This document shows positions 2,494-62,882 of a DNA stretch of 64,000 nt, piece by piece. This stretch comes from a virus. Positions within the stretch are counted from its first letter, which is position 1; each line of letters begins with the position of its first letter. The stretch lies in IMG/VR virus record IMGVR_UViG_3300027804_002057; one strand, 5' to 3'. A program made the translations under genes and the position numbers. The notes beneath the pieces were generated by a model. The model searched no databases. It had not been told where the DNA came from and worked only from the letters and a program-made list of their open reading frames with translations.

Positions 2494-5400
2494 TTAACTC
2501 ATATTTTTACCAACTACAAATCCATAATAAGTAGTACCACCATCAAATGTAAAGAATGTCAATACATCTATACCAGTTGATGTTAATATAGGTGCACTTC
2601 CACCAGCCCAATCCAAATTAACTGGCCATGTTAATGCGTATGTACCAGCATTAACCATAGTAAATGTAAATCCGAATGAATTTGATGCAGGTGCGTTACT
2701 AAATGCAATTGTTGAAGTTGCGTTAAATTGTCTTCTAAAATTATTTCCTAATGAAAGGTCTATTGTTACACTTCCACCTGTACCATAATCATAATAAGTT
2801 TCTCTATATGTGGTTGATGCTACATTTCCAGTTACAGACATTGTAGTTCCATCAAAAGTTAAATTACTTTCAACGATTGCAGCCACAGGGGTTACTTGGT
2901 ATGTCAATAAACCATTATCAGTTGCTCCAGTCAAACTAAATCCGTTTGTACCAGAAGTTCCAGATGTAAAGTTTGGTGGAGTTGTACCAGAAGTACCAGA
3001 AGTACCAGTTAAACCAGCAGTTCCGGATGTACCAGAAGTAAAGCCAGGAGGCGTAGTACCAGATGTACCAGAAGAACCTGTTTCGCCTGAAGTTCCAGCA
3101 GTACCCGATGTAAAGTTTGGTGGAGTTGTACCCGAAGTACCCGATGTGCCAGTTTCTCCACTAGTACCACCACTACCGCTTGTACCAGATGTAAAGCCCG
3201 GAGGTGTAGTACCAGAAGTACCAGAAGAACCAGCCGAACCCGTAGCTCCAGGTGCACCACTACTTCCGCTTGTACCAGACGAACCAAAGAATGTACCATC
3301 TAACCCACTTGTACCAGAAGTACCATTTGTACCCGTAGAACCTGATGTTCCGTTTGAGCCCGATGTTCCGTTTGAGCCCGATGTACCAGAAGTTCCAGAA
3401 GTTCCCGATGAACCAAAGTAAGTTCCATCAAATCCAGAAGTACCACTTATACCAGAAGTTCCCGATGTACCCGATGTACCATTCGTACCCGTAGAGCCAG
3501 ATGTACCAGAAGTTCCTGATGTACCAGAAGAACCAAAGTAAGTTCCATCAAATCCAGATGAACCGCTACTTCCAGAAGTTCCTGATGTACCCGATGTACC
3601 ACTACTTCCAGCAGTTCCAGAAGAACCAGAAGTTCCTGATGAACCAAAGTAAGTTCCATCAAAACCAGAAGTACCACTACTTCCAGAAGTACCATTTGAA
3701 CCAGCTATACCGCTTGTACCAGAACTTCCTGAAGTGCCATTTGTACCGCTACTTCCAGAAGTACCACTACTTCCAAAGAATGTACCATCTAAACCAGAAG
3801 TTCCTGATGAACCAGCCGTACCAGTAGTACCACTTGAACCAGAAGTACCAGCTCCAGATGTACCGGATGTACCACTACTTCCTGAAGAACCAAAATAAGT
3901 TCCATCTAAACCAGACGTACCAGACGAACCGCTTGAACCAGACGTACCAGACGAACCTGCGCCCGAAGTTCCAGAAGAACCACTACTTCCAGAAGAACCA
4001 AAATAAGTTCCATCTAAACCAGAAGTTCCTGAAGAACCGCTTGAGCCACTACTTCCAGAAGTTCCATCCGTACCAGAAGTACCATTTGAACCAGATGTAC
4101 CAGAAGTTCCTGAAGAACCGAAGAATGTACCATCTAAACCAGAAGTTCCAGATGAACCAGACGTTCCAGCAGTTCCATTACTACCAGAAGTTCCGCTTGT
4201 GCCGCTTGTACCAGAAGAACCAGAAGTTCCTGATGAACCAAAGTAAGTTCCATCTAAACCACTTGTACCAGAAGTTCCGGAAGTTCCGCCTGTACCATTT
4301 GTTCCGCTTGAACCACTTGTACCAGCAGTACCAGTGCTTCCGCTTGTACCAGACGTTCCAGAAGTTCCTGAAGAACCGAAGAATGTACCATCTAAACCAG
4401 AAGTTCCAGACGTTCCTGATGTACCGCTTGTACCAGACGAACCAGAAGTTCCCGATGTACCAGAAGTACCTGAAGAACCAAAATAAGTTCCATCTAAACC
4501 GCTTGTACCAGAAGTTCCTGATGTACCATCTGAACCAGAAGTACCTTGCGTTCCAGAAGTTCCAGAAGTGCCAGATGAGCCCGATGTACCATCCGAGCCA
4601 CTTGTGCCCGATGTACCATCAATACCACTTGTACCAGAAGAACCAGTTGAACCACTTGAACCAGATGTTCCAGAAGTTCCCGAAGTTCCGCTTGTACCAT
4701 CACTTCCAGATGTACCACTACTACCGCTTGTACCAGACGAACCAGTTGTACCCGATGTACCTTCAGAACCATCCGTACCACTTGTACCACTCGAACCAGA
4801 TGTTCCGCTTGTACCATCTGAACCAGAAGTTCCCGATGTACCAGATGTACCATCCGAACCCGTAGTTCCAGAAGAACCCGTAGTTCCAGAAGACCCAGCT
4901 GAACCAGAAGAGCCAGAAGAACCAGCCGTTCCAGAAGTACCATCACTACCAGAAGTTCCAGAAGAACCAGAAGAACCAGACGTTCCAGAAGAACCTGTTG
5001 TGCCAGATGTACCACTTGAACCGGATGTACCACTACTACCGCTTGTACCATCCGTACCAGAAGTTCCCGAAGAACCACTACTTCCAGAAGTTCCGCTTGT
5101 TCCAGAAGAACCGCTTGAACCAGAAGTTCCTGATGTACCATCCGTACCAGAAGTTCCAGAAGTTCCGCTTGTACCAGAAGAACCAGAAGAACCTGTTGTA
5201 CCGCTTGAACCGCTTGAACCAGAAGTACCCGATGTACCATCTTCTCCAGAAGTACCTGATGTACCACTTGTACCAGAAGTTCCGCTTGTACCAGAAGTTC
5301 CCGAAGAACCTGTTGTACCAGAAGTACCACTTGTGCCAGAAGAACCAGAAGTTCCCGATGTACCAGAAGTACCACTTATACCATCCGAACCAGAAGTTCC

Positions 5401-8400
5401 AGATGTTCCCGATGAACCACCACTACCAGAAGTTCCTGATGTGCCACTTGTACCAGAAGTTCCACCACTACCGGATGAACCACTTGAACCAGCAGAACCA
5501 CCACTACCAGCTGAGCCGGATGTACCACCACTACCAGAAGTTCCAGATGTTCCAGAAGTTCCTGAAGTACCCCCGCTACCTGCTGTACCAGCTGTTCCGC
5601 TTGTTCCAGAAGAACCAGAAGTTCCAGAAGTACCTGAACTTCCACCAGAACCAGAAGTACCCGATGTACCACCACTACCAGAAGTTCCCGATGTACCGCT
5701 TGTACCAGAAGTTCCAGAAGAACCACCACTACCAGCCGTACCACTTGTACCGCTTGTACCAGAAGAACCACCACTACCAGATGAGCCTGATGTACCAGAC
5801 GTTCCCGATGTACCAGACGTTCCTGATGTACCAGACGTTCCTGATGTACCGCTTGAACCAGACGTTCCACTACTACCACTTGTTCCAGAAGAACCAGAAG
5901 TTCCCGATGAACCAGTTGTACCAGATGTTCCCGCTGAACCGCTTGTTCCAGAAGTTCCTGATGTACCAGAAGTTCCAGAAGTTCCTGATGAACCAGACGA
6001 ACCAGAACTTCCTGATGAACCGCTTGAACCAGAAGTTCCTGAAGTACCACTTGTTCCAGAAGTTCCTGATGAACCGCTTGAACCAGATGAACCAGAAGAA
6101 CCTGAACTACCGCTTGAACCGCTTGAACCAGATGAACCACTACTTCCGCTTGAACCAGATGAACCATCCGAACCTGAAGTTCCAGAAGACCCAGAAGAAC
6201 CAGCACTTCCAGATGTACCAGAAGAACCAGATGAACCAGCACTTCCAGACGAACCTGAACTACCACTTGTACCAGAAGAACCACCCGTACCAGCAGTACC
6301 AGATGAACCAACTGCTGCTACTATATTTCTTCTTTCTAATTTTTTAGTTATACTATTCCAAATAACAACATCTTCAGATGAACCAGAAGGTAAATTACCT
6401 AATAATAAACTTCCACTAACACCTAAACTTCCACTAATAGTTAAATTAGCGTTAATACTACTATCTTTGTTTACTTGTAAGAATGATGCCGTATTTACTC
6501 CTTCCGCATTTAGAGCGTAAAGAGCGTATGATGCGGTGTATGCTAATGAAGCAGTACCAACCAACATTGATGAAGTTGCTGATGAAAGTACAAAGTTACT
6601 AACATCTACATTTGCTGCGTTTGCTGCGTACAATGCGTAAGATGCAGTTCTAGCATAAGATGCCGATAGAACTGTCATAGATGCAGTTGCACTATTCTTA
6701 ACATAATCGGTTAATTCTAAACCTTGTAAACTAGCTACATATGATGCGGTTAATGCGTAAGAAGAACTTACTGCACCAAACACATTCATTGATGATGTTT
6801 GGTCATTTCTTACATATGCATTTGCATTTGCTAATGATGCCGATAATGCTACTAATGATGCAGAATCAAATCCAGTTACTGCGTCTGCTATTCCAGCTCT
6901 ACGAGCATAAGATGATGATAAAACCTCACCAAATACTCTATCACCAGTTATAGTTCCATTAATTAAAGAACCACCACTACCAATTACAACATGTCCAGAA
7001 GTTAATCCGGCAAATTTAATTTGTATTGTATCTTCATCAATTGATTTAACAGTACCAGGCAAAATTTGGTCCTCAGAACCAGTTGCGTAAACCTGAACCA
7101 TTGGGTATCTAATTCCCAAATTGTGTACAATTGTTAAATCACTAACATTATTGAATGATACAGTTTCAGTTAATGATGTTTCAGGTTGAGGTACAAAATA
7201 TCCTCTACTTTCATCAAATCTTAAAATATCATATTCCGCAGATGCAGTAGGCCCAACCCCTTGGAAATTATAAGTTCCCAAGAATGAACCAGTAAAGAAT
7301 GGTGCAAACACATATTGTGATGCAGTAACTTTATTTAAATATGCAGTGTTCGATACATTATAAAAATCACCCCAAATGAATGAAGATGTATTAACTACAA
7401 ATCCTTTATCAGGTGAAATTGATGCGGTTATTGAACCACTCTTTAATATGAATGTTTCAAATGATAAATTAGCAATGTTAATATTGTATAATCCACTACC
7501 ATCACCTACATATGTAGAACCACTTTGTAGTATAACATTACCACCACTTACAAACACAGAACCACTAATAGTTGCAGACCCAGAGAATATTCTTAATGAA
7601 GTATTAACTTCTAAACCTTTATCAGGAGATATTACAGCTTGAGCAGAACCAGATTGGATTCTATCCAATTTAAGGTCTTGTAATGCGTTTGCAGGGATGT
7701 TAAATAATCCACCACCATCACCACTATAACGTGCTGCTGTTATTTCAGTACTTACATCTAAAATTTCAGGTCTTTGAATTGTTGTAGCCGAACCAGATTG
7801 AATTCTATCTAACTGAAGGTCTTGAAGTGCTGATGCCGGAATATCAAATAAGTTTGCTCCAGAACCAGAGAATGAACCTGTGTAAAGTTTTACATCACCA
7901 TAGAAAGTAGAACCACTACTATATGATGTTACAATAAATCCTTCATTTGGTGCTACTGAAGCTGTTACACTACCACTTACAATTCTTGGTGCTGCAGCCG
8001 CTGCTACGTTTGTAATTTGAGAACCATCACCAATAAATGCAAATGCTCTTACACTTCCACTAACATCAACTGAACCGGTAAATAATGAACCATATGCTGA
8101 GCCGGTTTGTGAAGTTGTTACTACAAATTGTTTACCACTTGCTACCGATGCCGTTGCTGAACCACTAGCGATAAATGGTGCTGCTGCCGCTTGTACATTG
8201 GTGATTTGCGAACCATCACCAACAAAGAATTGCGCATATACCGAACCACTAACTGAAACAGAGCCTGTAAATTCTATACCAACATCAGAACCAGTGTATG
8301 CGGTTGTTACTATTAACTTATCACCACTTGCTACGGATGCCGTTGCCGAACCACTAGCGATAAATGGTGCTGCTGCCGCTTGTACATTTGTAATATATCT

Positions 8401-11400
8401 ACCATCACCATAGAAGAAATCAGTTACAGTCAATGAACCACTAACTGAAACAGAACCAGTAAATCTACTTCCTATTTCAGAACCAGTAAATGGAGTTATT
8501 ACATTAAATCCATAATCAGGTGAAACCGATGCGGTTACTGAACCAGATTTAATTTCGGTTGAGATTAATGCATCTTCAGTCAATGCTGAACGAGGTATTC
8601 TTCTAAGATATGTACCTTCTGCGTAAATAAATGATGATGAACCTATAAACAATCCACCACTTACATCATTCAAATACAAGCTACCACTTATATCAACAGA
8701 ACCAGTAAATTGTGAACCGATTTGTGTACTAAAGAAATCAGTATCTATTGATGATGTGAATGGAGTTATAACTTTAAATCCATAATCAGGTGCTACTGAA
8801 GCAGTTACAGAACCTGATTTAATTTCCGTAGATATTAACGCATCTTCAGTAAGAGCTGAACGAGGTATTCTTCTTAAGTATTGTCCTTCTGCAAATATAT
8901 AAGAACCAGAATCTATATAAACACTACCAGTTATATCCAATGAACCAGTAAATCTAGAACCAACTTGAGAACCTGTGAATGGAGTAATTACATTAAACCC
9001 ATAATCAGGTGCTACCGATGCTGTTACACTACCACTTTTAATTTCAGTACTAATTAAAGCATCTTCAGTTAATGCTGAACGAGGTATTCTTCTTAAGTAT
9101 TGTCCTTCTGCGTAAATAAATGATGATGAATCAATGTAAACTGCTCCACTTATTGCGTTTACATATAAGCTTCCACTCATATCAACATCACCCAACAATG
9201 ATATTTGTGCGGATGCAGATACCGCATCTACTACATTTATAATTCCCTGCATTGCAGAGTGCATTTGACAAATATAGTATAATGTATTTGGTGCACTTCC
9301 AGAAACTAAGAAAGTTATTGTACCAACATCATCACCATTATTTGTTACCCAACTATTATATTGTTGTGTAAGTCCAGTTACTGCCGTATCTTTAATCCAA
9401 AACGGATGACCAGATGCATTAACATTAAATGTGTATTCAGTATTTCTTACTAAAGTAATGGTTGGATTTGAACCACTTGCTGCTCCACTAAACACATAAG
9501 CGTTACTACCATCATTGGTAACATCAAATACTCTATTAAGGTCTTGCGGATTTATAATTCTAGCAGATGATGATACTATAAAACTACCTGTAATTGTAGA
9601 GAATGTATTTACTACAAATCCATAGTTAGGAGAAATTGATGCAGTTACAGAACCAGATGCCAATCTTACCGCATCTTCAACTATTGCTGAACGAGGTATA
9701 TTAACTAAACCAGCACCACTACCACTAAATACAGATGCAGATACACCACTATTAAAGAAAGAAGTTCCATCGACAGATAAGCTTGAACTTAATATTGTTT
9801 TTGAACCACTTACAAATACACTTCCAGTGAATTGAGAACCACTTGCTAAAGATTGTACTTTAAATCCAAATACAGGCGAAACTGATGCAGTTACCGAACC
9901 TGATTTTATTTCAGTTGATATTAATGCATCTTCACTTAATGCGTTTCTAGGAATATTTCTCAAATAAGTACCTTCACCAAAATATGCAGATGAAGAACCA
10001 AGCATTAATGCTCCACTAATAGCACTTATAATTACACTACCAGATATATAAACACTACCACTAATTCTTGAACCACTATATGGAGATTCTACAATAAATC
10101 CTCTATCAGGTAAAGCTGAGGCAGTTACACTACCACTTGCAATTCTAAATAATTCTTGCGAAAGTGCTGAGAATGGAATATCTGTCAATCCAGCACCACT
10201 ACCACTAAATACAGATGCAGATACACCAGATTGGAATCTAGTAAATCCACTAACTGATAAACTTCCACTAAAAGTAGAACCACTTGCTACCGAAGTAACA
10301 ACAAATCCAAAATTAGGAGATACTGATGCAGTTACGCTACCACTAAATATTTTTGATGTATCCAAATCAGATATTGCCGCAACCGGAATATCAAATAATT
10401 GTCTACCACTACCACTAAATGAGCCTGTTCTTAAAAATACAGAACCACTTAAAAATAATGAACCCGTAAATTGAGAACCCTTTTCAGTTGATTCTACTCT
10501 AAATCCAAATGTAGGTGAAACCGATGCGGTTACTGACCCAGAAAGGATTCTATTTGTATCCAATGCATCAGGTGCTAACGCTGTTCTGGGAATGTTAAAT
10601 AATCTTTCACCACTACCACTATATGAAGAACCAGATGTTAATTCGATACCTCTAGCACCACTAATAAATAATGAACCAGTTAATTGAGTACCCAACTCAC
10701 CAGATTGTACAATAAATCCTTTATCAGGTAATGCAGAAGCTGTTACCGAACCACTAGCTATTTTTGTTGTCTCTAATGGTGGTATAAATATATTTGTTAA
10801 TCTACTACCATCTCCAACAAATGAACCACTAATTTCGTATCCACTCATTGATACGGCAGTAATATTTTGTGCGGTTAAAGAGCCACTAATACTAACACTA
10901 CCAGATATTTCAGAACCTTTTTCTGCAGATTCTACTCTAAATCCATAAACAGGAGAAACTGATGCCGTTACTGAACCAGAAGAAATTCTAAACGAATCTC
11001 CAGTGAAAGCTGAACGAGGTATGTTAAATAATCCACTACCGTCACCTTGAATAAATGATGCACTTATCGATGCGGTAACTTCTCTAGCTACAATTCTATC
11101 TGATACAAATAAACTACCACTAATAACCACATCAGGTCCTCTTTGTAAAATAGCATCTACAATATTAATTGTACCAGCCATTATACTATGAACTTGGCAT
11201 ATGTAATATAAAGTAGAAGGAGAACCTACCTCTGGAGTAAATGTTATTACACCAACATCATCACCATTGTTTGTTACGCCTGTATTGTATGCATTACCAG
11301 TACCAGTTGTTTGTGCTGTCTTAATCCAGAAAGGATGCCCCGTAGCATTTACATTAAATGTATATGTTATTCCTCTTACTAAAGTTAAAGTTGGATTTAA

Positions 11401-13686
11401 TCCATTTGCTGCTCCACTAAATAAATAAGCAGATGCCCCACTATTAGTTACATTAAATACAGTTTGTATAGATTCACTTGGTAAGTATGTAGCTGATGCT
11501 GATATAATCATACTACCAGTGAATGTAGAGAATGTATTTACTCTAAATCCTTCATTTGGTCTAATAGATGCCGTTACAGAACCACTACCAATTTTTGAAA
11601 GGTCTAAATCAGGAATAGCATCAATAGGAATTTCTCTTAATAATTTACCACTACCAGAGAAAGAACCAGTAAATAATTCTATATTTCCACTTACAAATAA
11701 TGAACCAGTAAATTGAGAACCACTATTTGGAGAATATACAACAAATCCCTTTTCAAGACTAACCGAAGCACTTACTGAAGCAGTTACACTTCCAGTTGCC
11801 ATTAAAGTAACTTTAAGGGCATCAACAGCTAAAGCAGATAATGGTACGTTTCTTAAATATGTACCATCCGCAAATAAGAATGATGATGATTCTATATAAA
11901 CACTACCACTAAATTTAGAACCACTTTGAACAGAAGTTACAACAAATCCTTCATTTGGTGCTACTGAAGCTGTTACACTACCACTAGCTATAAATGTAGA
12001 AAGTAATGCATCAGGTGCTAGTGCTGAACGAGGTATATCAAATAATCCTTTACCACTACCAGAGAAAACACCAGAACCGCTTGGTATGAATATACTACCA
12101 CTAACATCCACACTTCCGGTAAATTCAGAACCACTATTTAATGATTCCACTCTAAATCCATAAACAGGAGAAACGGATGCAGTTACCGAACCAGATTCAA
12201 TTCTTGGTGCGGCTGCTGCTTGTACATTTGTAAGTTGAGAACCATCTCCAATAAAAGTAAATGCTCTAACACTACCGCTTACATCAACACTTCCAGTAAA
12301 TTGAGAACCAAATGCAGAACTCGTAAATGGAGTTTGTACTCTAAATCCAAAATTAGGAGAAACAGATGCGGTTACACTACCACTTTTAATTTCAGCAGAA
12401 ATAAGAGCATCTTCAGTAAGAGCCGTTCTAGGAATATTTCTAAGATTAGTACCATCACCATAATATGTAGAACCAGATGCTAATCGTATTGAACCACTAT
12501 TAGGATTTACAAATAAACTACCCGTAATAGAAACACTTCCAGTAAATTGTGAACCGCTTGTAGTTGATGTTACTACAAATCCTTGATTTGGTGAAACAGA
12601 TGCTGTCACACTACCACTAGCAATTAATGGAGAAAGTAATGCATCAGGTGCTAATGCCGAACGTGGAATATTAAATAATTTTTCACCACTACCAGAGAAT
12701 GAACCACTATAAATTCCAATTATAGCTCCACTAACAATTAATGAACCTGTAAATTGAGAACCGCTTGCTAAAGATTCAACTCTAAATCCAAAATCAGGAG
12801 ATGTTGATGCCGTTACCGAACCACTACCAATTAAACTAGCAACTTCTGCATCCGGTGTTAAAGCTGAACGAGGAATATTTCTAAGATATGTACCCTCACC
12901 ATAATAAACCGATGATGATTCTAAAATTAATGCACCAGAAGTAGCTGTTATAACTAAACTTCCACTTAGGTAAATACTACCAGTAAATTGTGAACCACTT
13001 TCAGATGATATTACTTTAAATCCATCACCAGGACTTACAGATGCTGTTACCGAACCAGTTGCTATTTTTACAGCTTGCGGTAAATTAAATAAATTTGCAC
13101 CATCTCCAAAGAATGAACCAGTAAATGAACCAGTAAATGATGAACCGCTAATATTATTACCTATAAATTCACTTTGTACTCTTACTGAACCCGTAAATTG
13201 TTGTATATCAGAATCATCATTTCCAAAAATATTTGAACCCGATGAATAAATTATTGAAGAAGATACAATATTAACAATAATTTGGTCAGCATAGATTGAT
13301 TCATCAACTACCAAATTACCATGAATATATGTATTAGTATTTACATCTAAATTTCCTTCTACAAAAGATGCGGTTGCAGAACCACTAGCTATTTTAGTTG
13401 CTGATGGTAAATTAAATAATTCAGAACCATCTCCAGTAAAAGAACCTGTAAATGAGCCAGTAAATCTACCAGAAGCTCTATCTAAATCTAAACTACGAAC
13501 AAATCCTCTATTACCCTGGTCATCAGAAACTACGATAGCAGGAGAACCAGAAAGTGAAGCGCTAAAGTTTGGTACACCCAAATTAGGTTCAACTTGAGAT
13601 AAATCAATAAATTGATACCTGTCCTGCGTTACATTTTTTGGGTTTACAACCCTTACCCTTCCTGTTAATAGATTACTAATTGCCAT
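2494..13686 (-). CDS. Giant fibre protein (3730 aa): about 65-aa SGSVTAS repeats, two cupredoxin-like inserts, a long Gly-X-Y Ser/Thr region and a C-terminal tip-adaptor domain
   Basis: Repeats GDGxxLxNIPRSAL...IxSGSVTASVSPxxGF...GSxFTGS; GTS/GSS triplets; C-terminal TIDLSLGNNF...LTWP...DVLTFFTFDGGTTYYG. Confidence 0.85.
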   Translation of the reverse strand: MAISNLLTGRVRVVNPKNVTQDRYQFIDLSQVEPNLGVPNFSASLSGSPAIVVSDDQGNRGFVRSLDLDRASGRFTGSFTGSFTGDGSELFNLPSATKIASGSATASFVEGNLDVNTNTYIHGNLVVDESIYADQIIVNIVSSSIIYSSGSNIFGNDDSDIQQFTGSVRVQSEFIGNNISGSSFTGSFTGSFFGDGANLFNLPQAVKIATGSVTASVSPGDGFKVISSESGSQFTGSIYLSGSLVITATSGALILESSSVYYGEGTYLRNIPRSALTPDAEVASLIGSGSVTASTSPDFGFRVESLASGSQFTGSLIVSGAIIGIYSGSFSGSGEKLFNIPRSALAPDALLSPLIASGSVTASVSPNQGFVVTSTTSGSQFTGSVSITGSLFVNPNSGSIRLASGSTYYGDGTNLRNIPRTALTEDALISAEIKSGSVTASVSPNFGFRVQTPFTSSAFGSQFTGSVDVSGSVRAFTFIGDGSQLTNVQAAAAPRIESGSVTASVSPVYGFRVESLNSGSEFTGSVDVSGSIFIPSGSGVFSGSGKGLFDIPRSALAPDALLSTFIASGSVTASVAPNEGFVVTSVQSGSKFSGSVYIESSSFLFADGTYLRNVPLSALAVDALKVTLMATGSVTASVSASVSLEKGFVVYSPNSGSQFTGSLFVSGNIELFTGSFSGSGKLLREIPIDAIPDLDLSKIGSGSVTASIRPNEGFRVNTFSTFTGSMIISASATYLPSESIQTVFNVTNSGASAYLFSGAANGLNPTLTLVRGITYTFNVNATGHPFWIKTAQTTGTGNAYNTGVTNNGDDVGVITFTPEVGSPSTLYYICQVHSIMAGTINIVDAILQRGPDVVISGSLFVSDRIVAREVTASISASFIQGDGSGLFNIPRSAFTGDSFRISSGSVTASVSPVYGFRVESAEKGSEISGSVSISGSLTAQNITAVSMSGYEISGSFVGDGSRLTNIFIPPLETTKIASGSVTASALPDKGFIVQSGELGTQLTGSLFISGARGIELTSGSSYSGSGERLFNIPRTALAPDALDTNRILSGSVTASVSPTFGFRVESTEKGSQFTGSLFLSGSVFLRTGSFSGSGRQLFDIPVAAISDLDTSKIFSGSVTASVSPNFGFVVTSVASGSTFSGSLSVSGFTRFQSGVSASVFSGSGAGLTDIPFSALSQELFRIASGSVTASALPDRGFIVESPYSGSRISGSVYISGSVIISAISGALMLGSSSAYFGEGTYLRNIPRNALSEDALISTEIKSGSVTASVSPVFGFKVQSLASGSQFTGSVFVSGSKTILSSSLSVDGTSFFNSGVSASVFSGSGAGLVNIPRSAIVEDAVRLASGSVTASISPNYGFVVNTFSTITGSFIVSSSARIINPQDLNRVFDVTNDGSNAYVFSGAASGSNPTITLVRNTEYTFNVNASGHPFWIKDTAVTGLTQQYNSWVTNNGDDVGTITFLVSGSAPNTLYYICQMHSAMQGIINVVDAVSASAQISLLGDVDMSGSLYVNAISGAVYIDSSSFIYAEGQYLRRIPRSALTEDALISTEIKSGSVTASVAPDYGFNVITPFTGSQVGSRFTGSLDITGSVYIDSGSYIFAEGQYLRRIPRSALTEDALISTEIKSGSVTASVAPDYGFKVITPFTSSIDTDFFSTQIGSQFTGSVDISGSLYLNDVSGGLFIGSSSFIYAEGTYLRRIPRSALTEDALISTEIKSGSVTASVSPDYGFNVITPFTGSEIGSRFTGSVSVSGSLTVTDFFYGDGRYITNVQAAAAPFIASGSATASVASGDKLIVTTAYTGSDVGIEFTGSVSVSGSVYAQFFVGDGSQITNVQAAAAPFIASGSATASVASGKQFVVTTSQTGSAYGSLFTGSVDVSGSVRAFAFIGDGSQITNVAAAAAPRIVSGSVTASVAPNEGFIVTSYSSGSTFYGDVKLYTGSFSGSGANLFDIPASALQDLQLDRIQSGSATTIQRPEILDVSTEITAARYSGDGGGLFNIPANALQDLKLDRIQSGSAQAVISPDKGLEVNTSLRIFSGSATISGSVFVSGGNVILQSGSTYVGDGSGLYNINIANLSFETFILKSGSITASISPDKGFVVNTSSFIWGDFYNVSNTAYLNKVTASQYVFAPFFTGSFLGTYNFQGVGPTASAEYDILRFDESRGYFVPQPETSLTETVSFNNVSDLTIVHNLGIRYPMVQVYATGSEDQILPGTVKSIDEDTIQIKFAGLTSGHVVIGSGGSLINGTITGDRVFGEVLSSSYARRAGIADAVTGFDSASLVALSASLANANAYVRNDQTSSMNVFGAVSSSYALTASYVASLQGLELTDYVKNSATASMTVLSASYARTASYALYAANAANVDVSNFVLSSATSSMLVGTASLAYTASYALYALNAEGVNTASFLQVNKDSSINANLTISGSLGVSGSLLLGNLPSGSSEDVVIWNSITKKLERRNIVAAVGSSGTAGTGGSSGTSGSSGSSGSAGSSGSSGTSGSAGSSGSSGTSGSDGSSGSSGSSGSSGSSGSSGSSGSSGSSGSSGSSGTSGTSGTSGTSGSSGSSGSSGSSGSSGTSGTSGTSGTSGTSGSAGTSGTTGSSGTSGSSGTSGSSGTSGSSGTSGTSGTSGTSGTSGTSGTSGSSGSGGSSGTSGTSGTAGSGGSSGTSGTSGTSGTSGSGGTSGTSGSGGSSGTSGTSGSSGTSGTAGTAGSGGTSGTSGTSGTSGSGGTSGSAGSGGSAGSSGSSGSGGTSGTSGTSGTSGSGGSSGTSGTSGSDGISGTSGTSGTSGSSGTSGTSGTTGSSGTSGTSGTSGTSGTSGTSGEDGTSGTSGSSGSSGTTGSSGSSGTSGTSGTSGTDGTSGTSGSSGSSGTSGTSGSSGSSGTSGTDGTSGSSGTSGSSGTSGTTGSSGTSGSSGSSGTSGSDGTSGTAGSSGSSGSAGSSGTTGSSGTTGSDGTSGTSGTSGSDGTSGTSGSSGTSGTDGSEGTSGTTGSSGTSGSSGTSGSDGTSGTSGTSGTSGSSGSTGSSGTSGIDGTSGTSGSDGTSGSSGTSGTSGTQGTSGSDGTSGTSGTSGLDGTYFGSSGTSGTSGTSGSSGTSGTSGTSGTSGLDGTFFGSSGTSGTSGTSGSTGTAGTSGSSGTNGTGGTSGTSGTSGLDGTYFGSSGTSGSSGTSGTSGTSGSNGTAGTSGSSGTSGLDGTFFGSSGTSGTSGSNGTSGTDGTSGSSGSSGSSGTSGLDGTYFGSSGSSGSSGTSGAGSSGTSGSSGSSGTSGLDGTYFGSSGSSGTSGTSGAGTSGSSGTTGTAGSSGTSGLDGTFFGSSGTSGSSGTNGTSGSSGTSGIAGSNGTSGSSGTSGFDGTYFGSSGTSGSSGTAGSSGTSGTSGTSGSSGSSGFDGTYFGSSGTSGTSGTSGSTGTNGTSGTSGTSGISGTSGFDGTYFGSSGTSGTSGTSGSNGTSGSNGTSGSTGTNGTSGTSGLDGTFFGSSGTSGSSGAPGATGSAGSSGTSGTTPPGFTSGTSGSGGTSGETGTSGTSGTTPPNFTSGTAGTSGETGSSGTSGTTPPGFTSGTSGTAGLTGTSGTSGTTPPNFTSGTSGTNGFSLTGATDNGLLTYQVTPVAAIVESNLTFDGTTMSVTGNVASTTYRETYYDYGTGGSVTIDLSLGNNFRRQFNATSTIAFSNAPASNSFGFTFTMVNAGTYALTWPVNLDWAGGSAPILTSTGIDVLTFFTFDGGTTYYGFVVGKNMS
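2940..6310 (-). repeat. Collagen-like (Gly-Thr/Ser-Ser)n coding repeat, about 1,120 codons
   Basis: 9-bp periodic ACC/TCC-AGA-AGT-type units. Gly at every third residue, apart from periodic interruptions. Confidence 0.95.
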
Positions 13687-32264: not shown

Positions 32265-34796
32265 TTACGCATGTTGTGTTATTACACATGTTATCGATGG
32301 TGTTATTGGTGTTGTTGGTGTTGTACCTGCAGCATAATACTCAAACGAATTTGTAGTACCTTCTCCCTGATACATTACTTCAAAATAAGAGCCAGAGTTT
32401 AGATACAATAAAGATGTTTTTGTAATTGGTGTAATGTATGTATTATTAACAGTTGCTCTCACATTTGTTGCCGGTACATCATTTCCATCTTTTCTTAACC
32501 AAGTATTAATTGTAGATGTACCTGCGGAATTTCTATACCCTTGTGCAACATATTGTATATTATACCAACCAGTCACATTTGTATAAACTCTACTTGTTCT
32601 AGTACCAGACCTAACTATATCAAATGCGCCACTATTACCATCCATTGTACTAAATTCAAATTGGTATGCAGTTGTTGTTGATGCCACAGTTTGAGATGCC
32701 GTATGATACATCATTGCGTAGTTGAATTGTTTACTACCACTTACATAAAATCCATCATTTATATTAAAAGAACCCGTCACCGTCAATGAACCACTTATTA
32801 CAGCAGAACCAGTATATGCAGTTAGTATTGCTGATGTACCAGAAGTACCAGCCGTACCACCACTACCTGCCGTACCATTTGTGCCTGATGTGCCACTACT
32901 TCCGCTTGTGCCAGAAGTTCCCGATGTACCACCACTACCTGCGGTGCCTCTAGTTCCAGAAGTTCCTGATGTTCCGTTTGTTGCATCTAAACCATTTGTT
33001 CCGTTTGCCCCCGATGTACCACTACTTCCGCTTGTGCCACTACTACCGCTTGTACCACTAACTCCCGATGTTCCAGATGAACCCGAAGTTCCATCACCAC
33101 CAGCTGCTCCTGCTAAGTTTACAGTCCAAGAACTATATGTACCACTACCAGTTATTTCCGATGGTGTACCAAATACCAATTCACCTGTATTTATATCGTA
33201 TGATACAATCATTGAAATTTGGTGATTTGAAATATTGTATGCTATTAAAACATCTTGTGCTACGGTATATGATAATCCCGTTTCAACAAATATAGTACCA
33301 CCACTTCCTAGTGTAAATTCAGTATCAGATGTTGCTTGATATTTACTTCCATCTAATCCAGAAGTTCCAGAAGTACCAGCCGTACCACCGCTACCAGCAG
33401 TTCCATTTGTTCCTGATGTACCACTACTTCCAGATGTGCCAGATGTACCACCACTACCACTTGTACCGCTAGTTCCACTACTTCCGCTTGTGCCAGAAGT
33501 TCCCGATGTACCACCACTACCTGCGGTGCCTCTAGTTCCAGAAGTTCCCGATGTGCCACTTACACCACCACTACCATTTGTTCCATCCAATCCGTTTGTA
33601 CCATTTGCTCCAGAAGTGCCGCTTGTTCCACCACTACCTGCTGTACCATTCGTACCCCCACTACCTGCAGTTCCGTTTGTTCCTGATGTACCAGAAGTTC
33701 CATCAGCACCACCACTACCATTCGTTCCGTTTACTCCAGAAGTTCCAGATGTACCCCCAGTACCAGCAGTACCATCCGTTCCATCACCACCACTTGCTCC
33801 TGCTAAGTTTACATTCCAAGAAGTATATGTACCACTTCCTACCGTTGTTGTTGGTGGACCTACTACTAATGCTCCATTTGCAGGATTATAACTAACAACT
33901 GCAGCTGTTTCATAATTTGAACCATTATATGCAATTATTACCGTTTGTGCTGGTGTGTATGATAATCCCGTTCCTATTGTTAAAGTTGTTGATGAACCTA
34001 ATGTAAATGAAGTTGTTGATGTTGTTTTGTATTTATCACCATCATTACCACTTGTACCACTACTGCCAGAAGTTCCAGAGGTGCCGCTTGTGCCAGATGT
34101 TCCCGATGAGCCACCACTACCAGCAGTACCATTAGTTCCTGATGTTGCTGATGTACCTGATGTACCTGCTGTTCCAGAAGTTTGTGATGTATAAGGAGTT
34201 CCATTAATATAAAATTCACCATTTACAAATACTTCCGAACCACTTACTTCTAATGGAATAACTATACCATCGTTACCACTAAAGAATTGTAGGGAAGCAT
34301 TACCTCTAGTTACGTTACCAATTAAAAAGTTTGAACCAGTTGTATATAGATACGCATCGTTTTCTCTACCTAAGAAAGTATTATATCTACTACTATTGAT
34401 ACCCAAATCCACATAGTTACCACTTTCATTTCCAGTATCATTTGTTGCTACAAAGTCAGAAGATGCTGCGTTAAGATTACTATTATTCCTTACACCAATT
34501 TGTACATATCCCTGTAAATTACCAACACCACTTATTACATCTATTGTTGAAGATGATACAAATAAAGTTCCATCGATTGTTTGGTCACCTATAAAATCGT
34601 TACCACCAACTAATACTGCATAAGAACCAGTATCCAAATAGTTATAGTATCCTAAGTCTAGCCATGCAGTTACACCATCGCCAATTTTAATATTGTTGGT
34701 GTCCATTTCAAGACCTAATTCACCTTGCGATAGGGTTGGGTTTACATTTTCCCAGTTTTCTCTTATATCCCTTCTTAATTGTATTTTACTTGCCAT
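32265..34796 (-). CDS. Collagen-like fibre with an Mtd_N-type N-terminus and a C1q/BclA-like C-terminal head
   Basis: KIQLRRD...W...NPTLxxGELGxExDTxxxKIGDGVTAWxxLxY at the N-terminus, three GTS tracts, two related inserted domains, and C-terminal TGWYNI...WLRKDG...LYLNSGSYFEV. Confidence 0.75.
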   Translation of the reverse strand: MASKIQLRRDIRENWENVNPTLSQGELGLEMDTNNIKIGDGVTAWLDLGYYNYLDTGSYAVLVGGNDFIGDQTIDGTLFVSSSTIDVISGVGNLQGYVQIGVRNNSNLNAASSDFVATNDTGNESGNYVDLGINSSRYNTFLGRENDAYLYTTGSNFLIGNVTRGNASLQFFSGNDGIVIPLEVSGSEVFVNGEFYINGTPYTSQTSGTAGTSGTSATSGTNGTAGSGGSSGTSGTSGTSGTSGSSGTSGNDGDKYKTTSTTSFTLGSSTTLTIGTGLSYTPAQTVIIAYNGSNYETAAVVSYNPANGALVVGPPTTTVGSGTYTSWNVNLAGASGGDGTDGTAGTGGTSGTSGVNGTNGSGGADGTSGTSGTNGTAGSGGTNGTAGSGGTSGTSGANGTNGLDGTNGSGGVSGTSGTSGTRGTAGSGGTSGTSGTSGSSGTSGTSGSGGTSGTSGSSGTSGTNGTAGSGGTAGTSGTSGLDGSKYQATSDTEFTLGSGGTIFVETGLSYTVAQDVLIAYNISNHQISMIVSYDINTGELVFGTPSEITGSGTYSSWTVNLAGAAGGDGTSGSSGTSGVSGTSGSSGTSGSSGTSGANGTNGLDATNGTSGTSGTRGTAGSGGTSGTSGTSGSSGTSGTNGTAGSGGTAGTSGTSAILTAYTGSAVISGSLTVTGSFNINDGFYVSGSKQFNYAMMYHTASQTVASTTTAYQFEFSTMDGNSGAFDIVRSGTRTSRVYTNVTGWYNIQYVAQGYRNSAGTSTINTWLRKDGNDVPATNVRATVNNTYITPITKTSLLYLNSGSYFEVMYQGEGTTNSFEYYAAGTTPTTPITPSITCVITQHA

Positions 34797-47313: not shown

Positions 47314-47314
47314 A

Positions 47315-50732: not shown

Positions 50733-50741
50733 TATAAATAT
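50733..50741 (-). promoter_or_regulatory. Putative late promoter motif ATATTTATA
   Basis: About 16 nt upstream of the ATG at 50717. Confidence 0.55.
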
Positions 50742-50746
50742 TCGGA

Positions 50747-51136
50747 TTATTCTTTTACAACTCTTAAGCCTTGTGAATTAGGTGTTGCGGCTTGTTGTTG
50801 TATTTGTTTTCTTGATGGTGCACCAGGTTGATATGTTATTGTACCATCTTGTAAATTTATTCTTCCTTGTGGATATTTATCATCTAAAGCATCTAAAAGT
50901 TCTCTTAATTCATCATTTTTTGCTTTAAACTCATCATCAAATTGAATTTGTAAGTCATCCAATCTTTTTAAATCAGCTTGAAGTTCGTTTCTTCTTATAT
51001 AGATTTCTCCAAATCTGCTAACAATATTAGCTATTTGATTATTTACTTCAGTAACGTTTTGTAAAACGCTATCTTCCAACTTTACAGTTTCAATTTCTAC
51101 TGCTTGCTTTTGTGGAATTTTATCTAATTCTGCCAT
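50747..51136 (-). CDS. Coiled-coil protein (paralogue of 54925-55182)
   Basis: Heptad pattern ending KYPQGRINLQDGTIT. Confidence 0.65.
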   Translation of the reverse strand: MAELDKIPQKQAVEIETVKLEDSVLQNVTEVNNQIANIVSRFGEIYIRRNELQADLKRLDDLQIQFDDEFKAKNDELRELLDALDDKYPQGRINLQDGTITYQPGAPSRKQIQQQAATPNSQGLRVVKE

Positions 51137-51161: not shown

Positions 51162-51170
51162 TATAAGTAT
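51162..51170 (-). promoter_or_regulatory. Putative late promoter motif variant ATACTTATA
   Basis: About 26 nt upstream of the ATG at 51136. Confidence 0.5.
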
Positions 51171-51171
51171 A

Positions 51172-51561
51172 TTACTTTTGGTTTTTTAAAATCTTAGTTG
51201 TACTAAAACCTTCGATTTTATCGAAAAATTCTATTTTAGGAATATATTCAACTCCGATTATTTGATGATATTTGTAATCATTGCCAATTACCATAATATC
51301 AGGTTCCCATTCTTTTATTCTTTCTACCAACTCAGCATCAGAATCAAACGATACAACGGAATCAACACCATTGATAGCAGATATAAATTCCATACGGTCA
51401 TTTAATGTATTAAACGGTCTTCCATCTCCTTTTTTTGAACGAACTCTTTCATCGGTATCAATACCCACTCTTAATACACCAAAAGATGCTGCGTGGGATA
51501 TTAATCTAATATGTCCAATGTGTAGAACATCAAATGTACCGTTTATCCAAACCTTTTTCAT
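51172..51561 (-). CDS. RfaE/HldE domain-II-like nucleotidyltransferase (ADP-heptose synthase-like; TagD-related fold)
   Basis: NGTFDVLHIGH, VGIDTDERVRSKKGDGRPFN...R, GNDY, STTKI. Confidence 0.8.
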   Translation of the reverse strand: MKKVWINGTFDVLHIGHIRLISHAASFGVLRVGIDTDERVRSKKGDGRPFNTLNDRMEFISAINGVDSVVSFDSDAELVERIKEWEPDIMVIGNDYKYHQIIGVEYIPKIEFFDKIEGFSTTKILKNQK

Positions 51562-52715
51562 TATAAAAATTTCTCCAATTCTTTAATTACCATTTCCGAT
51601 GTAATAAATTTGGTACACTCAAATTGTCTTTCTGTTCCTTTGTGGTCTGGGCACCAGTTCCAATCGCCAGCATTTAATCTTACTCTATTAAAACAACCTT
51701 CACACTTTCCTTTAGGTGCTGCTATTCTTATACAATCTTCCATCTCTGCCCAATCATACGAAAATCCACTTATTAAAACAGTTGGTACATCTAAAGACCA
51801 ACTTAACCAACTCAACCCACTACCAATTCCAATAAACGCTTTAGATTTTTTCAATTCATCCATAACCAATTCAATTGGGCCGTTTGGATGCTTAACAATA
51901 CCATATGGTAATTTATTACCCATATAATCATCACCTTCCTTTGAAATAAGTTTTACCGTATATCCTTTATTATTTAACCAATCAACCACATCTTGCCAAC
52001 CAGTTGGGTTATTCCAAAATTTAGATTGTGCAGTTCCAAATACACCTATACAAACTTGATTAATTTTTTGTAATGATGGATTCTTTCTTTGAAGTTTTGG
52101 TTTTATTTCTTTAAATGGTAATCCTAAAATATCAGAACACATTTTTTGAAGTGTAACTGTTTTTGGGTCAATTGGATTTTTAAATAAATTTATAGAATCA
52201 TCTTCATTATAAAATAAACCAATACAATACATTGCGTATAAATTATCTGCTGTATCTCCGGGTTTTATAAATTCTATATTTGGGTATTCACTTGCGAAAA
52301 AATCATTCATAAAAGTTGATGCTACCAATTTACAATTATGTTTTTTTCTGAATTCTTCTAAGTATGGAAACCAAGATAATGTATCTCCCAATGCTCTTGA
52401 ATCTAGAGCAATATAAACTCTTTTATTAGATGCATCATATGTAAACTCATTCCATAGTTTACCATTTTCAAATATTTTAATTTTCCATTCTACAAAATAT
52501 TCAATACTACATCTACACCAACAATTATTTCCTATTGTTGTTTTGTATTTAAGTTCTCCATTAGAATTATCAATAAACTCAACAGTGTATTTTGCTGTTT
52601 TTGGACCTGTTATTTCTACAAAAGGTCCTTTAACAAAATGATAATGAAGTTTATTTTGTTTATCTATTTTATTATTTAAATTCTTTTTTAAATTATCGTA
52701 TATCATTAACTCCAA
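51561..52715 (-). CDS. Aah/TibC-like (BAHT family) protein O-heptosyltransferase
   Basis: ALGDTLSWFPYxEEFRKKH; TAQSKFWNNPTGW; FIGIGSGLSWLSW...PTVLISGFS; four-Cys CEGCFN...WCP...FEC. The true start may be the ATG a few codons in (MIYDN). Confidence 0.8.
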   Translation of the reverse strand: MELMIYDNLKKNLNNKIDKQNKLHYHFVKGPFVEITGPKTAKYTVEFIDNSNGELKYKTTIGNNCWCRCSIEYFVEWKIKIFENGKLWNEFTYDASNKRVYIALDSRALGDTLSWFPYLEEFRKKHNCKLVASTFMNDFFASEYPNIEFIKPGDTADNLYAMYCIGLFYNEDDSINLFKNPIDPKTVTLQKMCSDILGLPFKEIKPKLQRKNPSLQKINQVCIGVFGTAQSKFWNNPTGWQDVVDWLNNKGYTVKLISKEGDDYMGNKLPYGIVKHPNGPIELVMDELKKSKAFIGIGSGLSWLSWSLDVPTVLISGFSYDWAEMEDCIRIAAPKGKCEGCFNRVRLNAGDWNWCPDHKGTERQFECTKFITSEMVIKELEKFL

Positions 52716-54883
52716 GTTTTAACTGTCAAATCTAATAATGAAAATCCCTCTGCCTGCTTACTATAAATTTTATTGGTAGTGTATCTATTTTTTGGATGAT
52801 TATAAAATACGTGATTATACCAAAGGTCACCTACATCCCAACCACAATCTTTTATTCTTTCCATCCACCAACCTTTAGTTCGATTTGGAATTAGATATGC
52901 ATGTGCAAGGTCTTGATTATATGCAGTTTTTGAAAATAAATCATCTATTTTATCTTTCCCTCTAGATGGATTATCTGCTAAACCTATAAAATAAACATCA
53001 TCTCTTTCAGAAATAAAACATGCTTTATGTACTACATTTACAAATTCTTCCAATCCAGTATAAATGAATGCATCTGCTTCAAATATTAAAGTGTAATCAA
53101 AGTTTTCCTCATCGATTGTTTCCAATGCGTTTCTATGTGCTAAATAACATCCATAATGTCTACCAGTCATCCAACCCAATCCAGCACCAGGGTATAATTC
53201 ACCCGGCTTATTATCTTTACTTATGTGTTCAGGCCTTCTACAATTTTCAGCAGGTGCCAATCCTTCATAAACTTTATTTACAATTGGTTGATATACCATA
53301 CCATATTTCTCTAATTGCTTAATAGATTGGATGGATACTCTTTCTCTCATATCATCCGGTCTAGTCAACATATGTTTAATTTGTATTCTAGGTTTTCTAC
53401 GAATGTATGAACGATTTCCTCTTGCGATTTGATTATAAAAAAATTCATCTGCCGCTTTTGTAACACCAGGAAAAAAACTTCCACCATAATCATCCCCAGT
53501 AATGTAACCACCTGGCTTTATTTTATTATACCATACATTTAAATCATTTGTTACATCTTCGTAAGTATGCCCAGCATCAATCATCATAAAATCAATACTA
53601 CTATTTGCAAATTGATTTGCTGCATTTTTAGAAGTATCTTTTATTACATTAAAACTATCATAATTTTCAGATAAAACTGTATTATCTATAAATTCATAAA
53701 ATATATCACCTTTAAATGAATTTACAATATTCTGATGTAATTCTTCATCATCAGTTCCTTTAAAGGTATCAATTGTTGTAAAATTAATTTTTTTCTTAGA
53801 TTGCTTAATTTTAGTTGCTAAATAGTTTGTTGATTTACCAAACCAAGCTCCAAGCTCTACTACATTTGCAAATGGTGGAACTTTTTCAACAACCTCATCA
53901 TACAAATCCGAATAGGAAAACCAACCAGGTATTTCATAAAAATCAGGTTGTAATTTTTCTAATATAATTCTTTTGGTCAATTTTAAATCATCATCAATGT
54001 AAGTTACTAAAGGATTATTATCATATGTATCCAAATAAGTGTGTAACTTTCTAAATATACAAGGTAATTTATAACTTAGTGCCTCTTTAACCGATAATGG
54101 ATTTAATTCTAATTTTGATGAAAAATAAAAAAGGTCACAAGCTGCATAAAATGTATCTACATCATTTCTCTCACCCCATATGTGACAATTATCAGGAACA
54201 AATTCCATTAACGGTCTCCAATAATCTTCATAGTTCATAGCTTGGTTTCCTACAAAATGAAATTTAATTTTGTATTTTTCTAATTGTCTTGCTATATCAA
54301 ATATTTCAGCTTGATTTTTACCAGGAGAAAATAATCCAACCATTAATACATGCTTCCAATTAGAATCAAATCCTAATTCTCTTTGGGCAGATTGTTTATC
54401 AAATGTATAATCTTCTATTGGATATTCCCATAGCATTGTCTCAACGCCAGTATTTTCAAATTTTAATCTACTCCACTCCGATACCAAAACATATCTATCT
54501 GCTTGATATATTATATCATCTGGATTTGTATAAGAACCATGTGTTGTTGCTACAATAAAATACTTTCTATCATTTGAAAATATTTTATCTAAAACAAATG
54601 TAGGTAAATCAAATTGTGGAATTTCTTGAAAATGTATAATATCAGGCTGAAAAGCTTCTATTACAGAAATAATTTTAGATTTATCTTCTGCTAATGTATG
54701 TACCGGAACTAAAGATTTAATTCTATTTTTTTGAACTACATACGAATCACCACCACTATTGTTTATTTCAACAACTTGTATTTCAAAATCATCTATAAAG
54801 TGTTTTACTTGCTTATAGGTGTATTGTGGTTGTCCGCCTGTGGATAAATGCGGACATACATAAAGTAACTTTTTCTTTGCCAT
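52706..54883 (-). CDS. Three-domain fusion: GT-B (GT4-like) glycosyltransferase, class I SAM methyltransferase, and GT-A (GT25-like) domain
   Basis: PHLSTGGQPQ...ELNPLSVKEALSYKLP; VVELGAWFGKS...IDAGHTYE...KPGGYITGDDY; GCYLAH...LIFEAD. The ATG at 54883 (MAKKK) is preferred. Confidence 0.8.
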   Translation of the reverse strand: MAKKKLLYVCPHLSTGGQPQYTYKQVKHFIDDFEIQVVEINNSGGDSYVVQKNRIKSLVPVHTLAEDKSKIISVIEAFQPDIIHFQEIPQFDLPTFVLDKIFSNDRKYFIVATTHGSYTNPDDIIYQADRYVLVSEWSRLKFENTGVETMLWEYPIEDYTFDKQSAQRELGFDSNWKHVLMVGLFSPGKNQAEIFDIARQLEKYKIKFHFVGNQAMNYEDYWRPLMEFVPDNCHIWGERNDVDTFYAACDLFYFSSKLELNPLSVKEALSYKLPCIFRKLHTYLDTYDNNPLVTYIDDDLKLTKRIILEKLQPDFYEIPGWFSYSDLYDEVVEKVPPFANVVELGAWFGKSTNYLATKIKQSKKKINFTTIDTFKGTDDEELHQNIVNSFKGDIFYEFIDNTVLSENYDSFNVIKDTSKNAANQFANSSIDFMMIDAGHTYEDVTNDLNVWYNKIKPGGYITGDDYGGSFFPGVTKAADEFFYNQIARGNRSYIRRKPRIQIKHMLTRPDDMRERVSIQSIKQLEKYGMVYQPIVNKVYEGLAPAENCRRPEHISKDNKPGELYPGAGLGWMTGRHYGCYLAHRNALETIDEENFDYTLIFEADAFIYTGLEEFVNVVHKACFISERDDVYFIGLADNPSRGKDKIDDLFSKTAYNQDLAHAYLIPNRTKGWWMERIKDCGWDVGDLWYNHVFYNHPKNRYTTNKIYSKQAEGFSLLDLTVKTWS

Positions 54884-54892
54884 AAATTGTAA

Positions 54893-54924
54893 CAAATATA
54901 CGAAATTATTTTGATTCTACCAAA
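54893..54924 (-). promoter_or_regulatory. Bacteroidota-type housekeeping promoter (-33 TTTG, -7 TATATTTG)
   Basis: The minus strand has TTTG at 54924-54921, a 20-nt spacer, and TATATTTG at 54900-54893. This matches TTTG-N19-21-TAnnTTTG. Confidence 0.7.
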
Positions 54925-55182
54925 TTATTTTTCAAAGGTAACAACACCATCTACTAAATCAACTTCACCATTTGGATATTTTGCTTCTAAATCTTTCAAT
55001 TTATCGTTTAATTCACTATTAATTGTCAAATATTGAGATTCCATACTTTGCATAGCAGAATTCATTTGTTTCAATTCCAAATGTAATTGTCCTATGTTTA
55101 CAATTAATTCTGTTTGTTTATTTCTTAATTCTCTCAATCTTTCTATTAAAGATTCTTCTAATTTTTCAGTATATTTTTCCAT
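54925..55182 (-). CDS. Small coiled-coil protein (paralogue of 50747-51136)
   Basis: Heptad pattern ending KYPNGEVDLVDGVVT. Confidence 0.65.
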   Translation of the reverse strand: MEKYTEKLEESLIERLRELRNKQTELIVNIGQLHLELKQMNSAMQSMESQYLTINSELNDKLKDLEAKYPNGEVDLVDGVVTFEK

Positions 55183-55195
55183 ATTATTCTTTGTA

Positions 55196-55204
55196 TATAA
55201 ATAT
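55196..55204 (-). promoter_or_regulatory. Putative late promoter motif ATATTTATA
   Basis: About 14 nt upstream of the ATG at 55182. Confidence 0.55.
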
Positions 55205-62705: not shown

Positions 62706-62882
62706 ATGAAAAAATACGCAATGATACAAATTGATGCTGAAATACATCATTTATTAAAGGAATTTTGTAAAGAGAAGGGATATAAAATAAATGGGTTAGT
62801 AGAAACCCTTATAAAAGAAAAGGTAGAAGCTTCAAAGAAACCTCTACCCAAAAATATATTACCAGTTAATTCTAGAACTTAA
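62706..62882 (+). CDS. Small ribbon-helix-helix-like DNA-binding protein (58 aa); not in the ORF track
   Basis: MKKYAMIQIDAEIHHLLKEFCKEKGYKINGLVETLIKEKV...: a beta strand, helix, G-turn, helix pattern. It fills the only large gap and overlaps the convergent gene by 11 nt. Confidence 0.7.
   Translation: MKKYAMIQIDAEIHHLLKEFCKEKGYKINGLVETLIKEKVEASKKPLPKNILPVNSRT

Follow-up and report, generated by a model that had tools for sequence, protein, structure and literature searches.

The 64,000-nucleotide stretch of viral DNA analysed here (IMG/VR record IMGVR_UViG_3300027804_002057, referred to at its full length as the window) contains the morphogenesis region of a large T4-like phage and, within it, a cassette of three overlapping minus-strand genes that we predict to encode a protein glycosylation system. 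Its central product is assigned, by sequence and predicted structure, to the Aah/TibC (BAHT) family of protein O-glycosyltransferases, and is encoded between a fusion of two glycosyltransferase (GT) domains with a methyltransferase and an HldC-like nucleotidyltransferase (Table 1). We lean towards the reading that this cassette attaches heptose, taken from a largely host-made pool of ADP-heptose, to serine residues of the phage fibres, and that the sugar is then extended and methylated. The fibres themselves are very probably the target, as judged from gene co-occurrence, and, if they are, the donor sugar is quite probably a heptose. BAHT enzymes have so far been known for modifying the adhesins of enteric pathogens, and virion glycosylation in phages has been shown mainly for mycobacteriophages.

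The 381-residue transferase scores 282.7 bits against the TIGR04414 model (cut-off 200), TibC (PDB 4RAP, E 6e-57) is its only sequence match in the PDB, and its predicted structure (predicted local distance difference test, pLDDT, 92) shows the TibC fold, a β-barrel plus a GT-B domain with thumb and iron finger, matching 4RAP with a template modelling (TM) score of 0.85 and the lipopolysaccharide (LPS) GT9 enzymes WaaC/WaaF with one of 0.4-0.5. An LPS GT9 identity was rejected on this basis and on model scores (PF01075, 20.3 bits against a cut-off of 22; TIGR02193, 21.5 against 185), so that the Aah/TibC-type grouping proposed in an earlier note on this DNA held up once the family models were run. 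The equivalents of TibC Asp110, Thr226, Lys230 and Trp305 are retained (D108, T225, K229 and W300), and four cysteines (C335, C338, C352 and C364) are predicted, by their match to TibC, to form the iron finger; the catalytic Asp, Lys and Trp, the Thr and the four cysteines are invariant or nearly so across 30 diverse homologues. As in TibC, where it is Tyr-Met, a hydrophobic pair (F265/V266) occupies the tip of the thumb. Two homologues (L242 and L249) lack the iron-finger cysteines and keep the catalytic Asp and Arg286.

In contrast to TibC/TibA and Aah/AIDA-I (TIGR04414; 4RAP, 4RB4; PMC4358343), with which it shares the fold, the N-terminal β-domain and the catalytic Asp, the window enzyme is viral, ~31-35% identical, carries Val281, Gly295 and Trp in place of Arg286, Pro300 and Phe368, respectively, has a thumb three residues shorter, is coupled to additional GT and methyltransferase domains, and is linked to Gly-Ser/Thr collagen-like proteins instead of an autotransporter partner, of which none was found in the window. 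In a quick tree, the autotransporter-linked BAHTs form, together with those of rumen bacteria, a separate, well-supported clade, whereas the window enzyme falls among phage and environmental sequences; this tree and that of the nucleotidyltransferase below come from quick searches and carry no claim about the direction of transfer. The family itself is already named in databases.

The candidate substrates are two fibres of 3730 and 843 residues, both with the long Gly-X-Y runs by which the collagen family (PF01391) is recognised. The longest run of the former comprises 203 triplets (positions 4483-6309), and over its triplets Thr/Ser account for 94% of X and 77% of Y, with 0.1% Pro and 4% charged residues. 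The same protein contains 163 GTS, 102 GSS and 165 SGS motifs and the 843-residue fibre 39 GTS, in agreement with the tracts pointed out in the earlier note, whose mention of thousands of Ser/Thr in the structural products is likewise matched by 2025 Ser and 1422 Thr over 16 open reading frames (ORFs). Codons vary along the GTS tracts, which argues that the Gly-X-Y period is maintained at the protein level, and an origin as a mere DNA tandem repeat was rejected for this reason. The N-terminal 2400 residues of the 3730-residue protein (6310-13686, minus strand) are not collagen-like, and SGSVTAS recurs there in 17 copies. In the adjacent protein of 2466 residues and in that of 4674 residues no Gly-X-Y runs were found, and Ser makes up only 10-12%. 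A tblastn search of cultured phages with part of the 3730-residue fibre, run with the low-complexity filter on, returned no matches.

What ties the transferase to these tracts is their co-occurrence. Among 45 viral contigs of at least 30 kb, picked by a GTS DNA pattern alone, TIGR04414 was found in 22, including four of the five complete ones (~58-299 kb), and in none of 47 control contigs picked by a GPQ collagen pattern (Fisher p 4e-9, a value that ignores kinship and compares sets not matched by lineage). GTS repeats were also present in five of five further BAHT-bearing records, and a GTS protein lies next to, or two genes from, the BAHT fusion in phage Mel-JY01 and in the 735-kb phage LR756501. 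More independent than this viral test is the bacterial co-occurrence: Gly-Ser/Thr runs lie within 10 kb of BAHT, usually in the adjacent gene, in 31 of 35 bacterial chromosomal loci (Methylococcaceae, Polaromonas, Arenicellales and others), whereas none of 21 rumen and none of 3 plasmid loci shows them. Loci binned as Bacteroidota that look like phage contigs (L207, L215, L225, L232 and L263) were excluded from this count; they show GT4 fusions, long GTS fibres and, in L215, a terminase. GST flags at L068 and L314, which may stem from short tracts or from other reading frames, were given no weight. The association that the earlier note had suggested examining across phage genomes is thus strong. 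The Gly-Ser/Thr tract is also the sole neighbour feature common to distant phages and bacteria, which makes it extremely improbable that another part of the virion is modified instead, be it the SGS-rich N-terminal 2400 residues of the 3730-residue protein or the adjacent 2466-residue S74-chaperone fibre, even though TibC acts on β-helix serines, SGS motifs abound in the former, and the gene of the latter is the usual upstream neighbour of the cassette.

In several chromosomal loci from Methylococcaceae, beta-proteobacteria and Arenicellales (L208, L210, L212, L227, L229, L236, L254 and L259), BAHT has as neighbours small proteins that begin with what looks like a signal or lipoprotein leader and contain 10-40 Gly-Ser/Thr triplets. 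Judged from their sequences, these pairs are a bacterial version of the phage BAHT-GTS pairing, and the short bacterial tracts may be flexible linkers.

The 129-residue nucleotidyltransferase, an accessory gene judging from related loci, is probably HldC. Its best-scoring model is rfaE_dom_II (TIGR02199), as the earlier note had anticipated, yet its 97.9 bits remain below the cut-off of 181.5; TagD (TIGR01518) reaches 56.1 bits against 165.4, and a TagD identity was rejected. The protein matches phrog_7878 (E 7e-36), is 37% identical to a Bacteroidota HldC, shares the HxGH, KG..RP and STT motifs of the split HldE (HldA + HldC), and groups, with moderate support, towards HldC in a small tree whose outgroup consists of TagD-like matches below cut-off, not true TagD, for which searches returned weak matches only. 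Among 80 distinct related viral loci, which form our comparison set for the cassette, 33 have the nucleotidyltransferase followed by a PfkB kinase of ~250 residues (best model rfaE_dom_I, best PDB match HldA, also below cut-off), 12, plus the window, have the nucleotidyltransferase only, and 35 have neither. The neighbouring HldA-like kinase, a stronger argument than the scores and the tree, favours heptose over CDP-glycerol, the alternative product raised in the earlier note and disfavoured by the TagD score too.

As the earlier note had stated, GmhA, HldA and GmhB were not apparent in the window ORFs scanned, which were all but a few small ones. GmhA was found in none of eight complete BAHT phage genomes and GmhB in none of five records, while three of the eight genomes have an HldA match; no match to HldA or HldC was found in the complete genome G049, and in the nearest record, a 40-kb fragment (G001), the supply genes were not found. 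A self-sufficient phage heptose pathway was therefore rejected, and the proposal that the phage activates its own heptose proved overstated, since the supply genes are optional. The donor thus appears to be mostly host-derived. In a Bacteroidota sample, GmhA-like proteins occur in 110 of 151 genomes, HldA in 39 of 61 and HldC in 40 of 61 (about two thirds), so that a Bacteroidota host would be able to supply ADP-heptose. Viral heptose biosynthetic enzymes have been shown to make ADP-heptose (Tang et al., 2024, as reviewed in PMC11461863 and PMC11573728), their purpose being called unsolved in PMC11573728. The genes considered here differ from these and from HldE in scoring below curated cut-offs, in a kinase of only ~250 residues that is absent at the window locus, in that no GmhA/GmhB was found, and in a window nucleotidyltransferase without the STTR5 motif.

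With the same GTS fibres as target, a different donor, either another nucleoside diphosphate (NDP)-heptose or a non-heptose NDP-sugar, appears rather unlikely. It would accommodate the replacement of TibC Arg286 and Pro300, the 35 loci with neither supply gene, and kinase and nucleotidyltransferase scores far under their cut-offs, whereas the retained equivalents of Lys230 and of Trp305, which contacts heptose O4, the best match of the accessory gene pair to the two halves of HldE, the absence from the nucleotidyltransferase of (F/L)XXGRSTT, a motif marking CDP/UDP-heptose makers, and the retention of Arg286 in the GTS-associated Arenicellales clade all speak against it.

Directly upstream of the transferase, in the 80 loci wherever the contig extends that far, lies the fusion. 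Its GT4 (PF00534, E 1.5e-12) and Methyltransf_24 (E 1.4e-19) matches are both past cut-off, and its GT25-like domain, in which E-x-D is invariant, reaches 22.3 bits against PF01755 (cut-off 24; E 1.4e-4). The latter is predicted as a GT-A fold (pLDDT 94) with COLGALT1 as top structural match (E 1.2e-8, TM ~0.62, 14% identity), besides vaccinia H3, mimivirus R655 and bacterial GT25 (12-15% identity range); in the model, this match speaks for the fold and does not imply the substrate. The methyltransferase domain is missing in some relatives (L068, L298). Other phages frequently have GT4 joined straight onto BAHT, an arrangement that links GT4 to the same pathway. In the simplest reading, the fusion would extend and methyl-cap the first sugar, the least supported step of our proposal.

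The three ORFs form the overlapping operon described in the earlier note, comprising the GT fusion, the Aah/TibC-like transferase with its four cysteines and the RfaE-domain-II-like nucleotidyltransferase, and are coupled by TAATG stop/start overlaps at 52706 and 51561. The Bacteroidota-type housekeeping promoter motif ahead of it, TTTG-N20-TATATTTG (consensus from PMC6847099), is complete in 43 of the 45 distinct upstream regions compared among relatives, and its -7 element occurs in all 45; ahead of the genes flanking the cassette, the complete motif was not found. These have TAYTTATA upstream instead, a putative late promoter judging from its placement (36 of 41, 42 of 51, 12 of 12 and 36 of 36 relatives), which precedes the GT fusion in 0 of 45. 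Both motifs are informative by position only, since their counts in the window (4 against 2.4 by chance for the former, 21 for the latter) are at chance level, as were the results of a scan for sigma-70 promoters and terminators. The host-type motif at the cassette as opposed to TAYTTATA at its flanks and at the fibre suggests a Bacteroidota host and a cassette transcribed apart from the fibre genes, probably earlier.

Such timing fits enzymes made ahead of their substrate, and it also sustains the notion of an early module that alters the surface of the host, be it LPS, capsule or one of its proteins, against superinfection. LPS clusters often contain GT4 and GT25, the host-type promoter is unlike those of the flanking genes, and pelagimyophage glycosyltransferases and rfaE have been interpreted in this way, as surface remodellers against superinfection (PMC7029224). 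We nevertheless deem such a module improbable, given a fold that is that of TibC and not of WaaC/WaaF, a BAHT-GTS link seen in both phages and bacterial chromosomes, and the fixed place of the cassette among the morphogenesis genes in each of the 80 first-pass loci.

Several observations weigh against fibre heptosylation. In TibC, Arg286 reads the adenine and its Ala mutant loses most activity (PMC4358343), and the corresponding position is not Arg in most of the window enzyme's clade (V/I/L/T). The two GTS fibres are encoded 16 and 37 kb away from the cassette, a rough pattern for AIDA/TibA-type repeats gave 0 matches in the fibres, LR756504 has a very divergent BAHT and no GTS pattern, and the lineage mismatch of the GPQ controls belongs here as well. 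On the supply side, the nucleotidyltransferase, below cut-off as it is, is joined to HldC by a long branch with a Shimodaira-Hasegawa-like approximate likelihood-ratio test (SH-aLRT) value of only 89 and is without the Lys of the HldC VKG motif, and the cassette locus of the window phage has no HldA-like kinase. Finally, BimC, a BAHT member, has been reported to be without transferase activity (PMC6439308). With this precedent, the loss of Arg286 and a GT25-like domain closest to a collagen galactosyltransferase, the transferase could be thought of as a BimC-like protein without catalysis of its own, which binds or chaperones the fibre and leaves glycosylation to the GT4 and GT25 domains; this is highly improbable in view of the invariant catalytic Asp, Lys and Trp and of the many bacterial loci that consist of a lone BAHT and a GTS gene, with no nearby match to the phage GT4/GT25 domains.

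Under fibre heptosylation, transcription would start from the host-type promoter, whose motifs are seen in the DNA, probably ahead of the fibre genes, as their distribution suggests. The host would supply heptose phosphate, and the HldC-like enzyme, joined by the HldA-like kinase in many relatives, would top up ADP-heptose, activities to which similarity and gene context point. The iron-finger TibC-type enzyme, of established family, would then move heptose to serines of the Gly-Ser/Thr-Ser tracts on nascent fibres in the cytoplasm, a substrate suggested by co-occurrence, before the two GT domains of the fusion (GT4 and GT25-like) lengthen the glycan and its methyltransferase domain caps it. 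The likely purpose would be to help a collagen-like shaft that has neither proline nor salt bridges to fold or stay stable, and shielding or adhesion would come as by-products. The collagens known so far owe their stability to proline, to salt bridges or to glycosylation; (Gly-Pro-Thr)10 passes from coil to triple helix only on glycosylation (PMC11923368). The Gly-X-Y tracts of the fibres, which we infer to form triple helices, have almost no proline and no salt-bridge stabilisation. A tentative and rather doubtful extension of this idea would be a widespread 'glyco-collagen' system shared by phages and environmental bacteria: dense TibC-type heptosylation of Gly-Ser/Thr-Ser would let a proline-free triple helix fold, replacing hydroxyproline or salt bridges.

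Table 1. Features of the cassette, its candidate substrates and their surroundings (window coordinates).
Feature	Position	Strand	Remarks
GT4-methyltransferase-GT25 fusion, 725 aa (amino acids)	52706..54883	minus	GT4 ~1-310; S-adenosylmethionine (SAM) methyltransferase Methyltransf_24 ~330-490; GT25-like GT-A ~499-725
Aah/TibC (BAHT) family predicted protein O-glycosyltransferase, 381 aa	51561..52706	minus	TIGR04414, 4RAP match, model
HldC-like (RfaE domain II) nucleotidyltransferase, 129 aa	51172..51561	minus	accessory gene
Fibre, 3730 aa, candidate substrate	2494..13686	minus	359 Gly-X-Y triplets, PF01391
Fibre with Mtd_N domain, 843 aa, candidate substrate	32265..34796	minus	93 Gly-X-Y triplets (32832-34139), Pro-free triplets
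Bacteroidota-type housekeeping promoter motif, TTTG-N20-TATATTTG	54893..54924	minus	directly upstream of fusion gene
TAYTTATA motif (putative late promoter)	51162..51169	minus	just downstream of cassette
Further TAYTTATA copies	55196-55203, 50733-50740; 13706 and 13728		last two upstream of 3730-aa fibre
gp23 capsid	36582-38246	minus	
Portal	43429-45204	minus	
Terminase	45712-47322	minus	
888-aa protein	48051-50717	minus	N-terminal nucleotidyltransferase domain, DUF5661
Small coiled-coil-like proteins	50747-51136 and 54925-55182	minus	either side of cassette
SbcC/Rad50-like ORF	62872-63876	minus	

The window phage probably infects Bacteroidota, to judge from its promoter motifs. A complete 274-kb relative (G047) has an identical gene order and shares 90% and 95% identity in terminase and portal, respectively. 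Mel-JY01 (PP395634, L081), deposited as a Microcystis phage, is ~50-55% identical to the window phage in terminase, portal and capsid, and its host label may be worth checking given this likeness to an apparently Bacteroidota-infecting phage. The two small coiled-coil-like proteins on either side of the cassette are similar to each other, are retained around it in nearly all close relatives, and are possibly fibre chaperones. Homologues of the 888-residue protein span ~780-1490 residues and keep a constant place between cassette and terminase. Some relatives have extra genes directly upstream of the cassette (L036:3896-7525, L005:6934-7530, L068:5672-7669), which encode a 2-oxoglutarate (2OG)-Fe(II) oxygenase, next to Pro-rich PTPAP proteins, a DUF6445 protein, or a radical SAM/SPASM protein. 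The SbcC/Rad50-like homologue in G047 has 1048 residues, so that the start of the window gene probably lies beyond the window end. Away from the cassette, G047 also carries another nucleotidyltransferase, closer to TagD, and a large gene cluster that, by eye, is apparently sugar-related (G047:C1:81388-85238 and 112316-132963).

Precedents exist for parts of this proposal. In the mycobacteriophages Che8, Corndog and Myrna, phage glycosyltransferases modify the phage's own capsid and tail tube (Freeman et al., 2023, as summarised in PMC12363180), and phage-encoded enzymes acting on their own structural proteins are what we propose here from the genes; the portion of PMC12363180 available reports no tie to TibC-type enzymes, heptose or collagen-like fibres. 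With glycosylated collagens (Bacillus BclA, vent-worm cuticle collagen, human COLGALT1; PMC11923368; PDB 9EVK), the window fibres share Gly-X-Y and hydroxy residues at hydroxyproline places, and they differ in being Ser-dominated at Y and Pro-free, with a BAHT as the apparent initiating enzyme. COLGALT1 has the GT25-type fold of the last domain of the fusion but acts on hydroxylysine, its identity to that domain being low (see above). A literature search, in which subscription papers were not covered, found no description of phage BAHTs, fibre heptosylation or a BAHT link to Gly-Ser/Thr collagens; while the component families are known, their pairing, for which we found no paper, appears to be undescribed.

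The system is not rare, the enzyme family counting 2121 homologues in a protein search and at least 578 viral stretches. If our reading is correct, the BAHT family would gain a new class of substrates, the stability of proline-free Gly-Ser/Thr collagens would find an explanation, and the viral heptose-activating enzymes, whose function PMC11573728 calls unsolved, would have a role.

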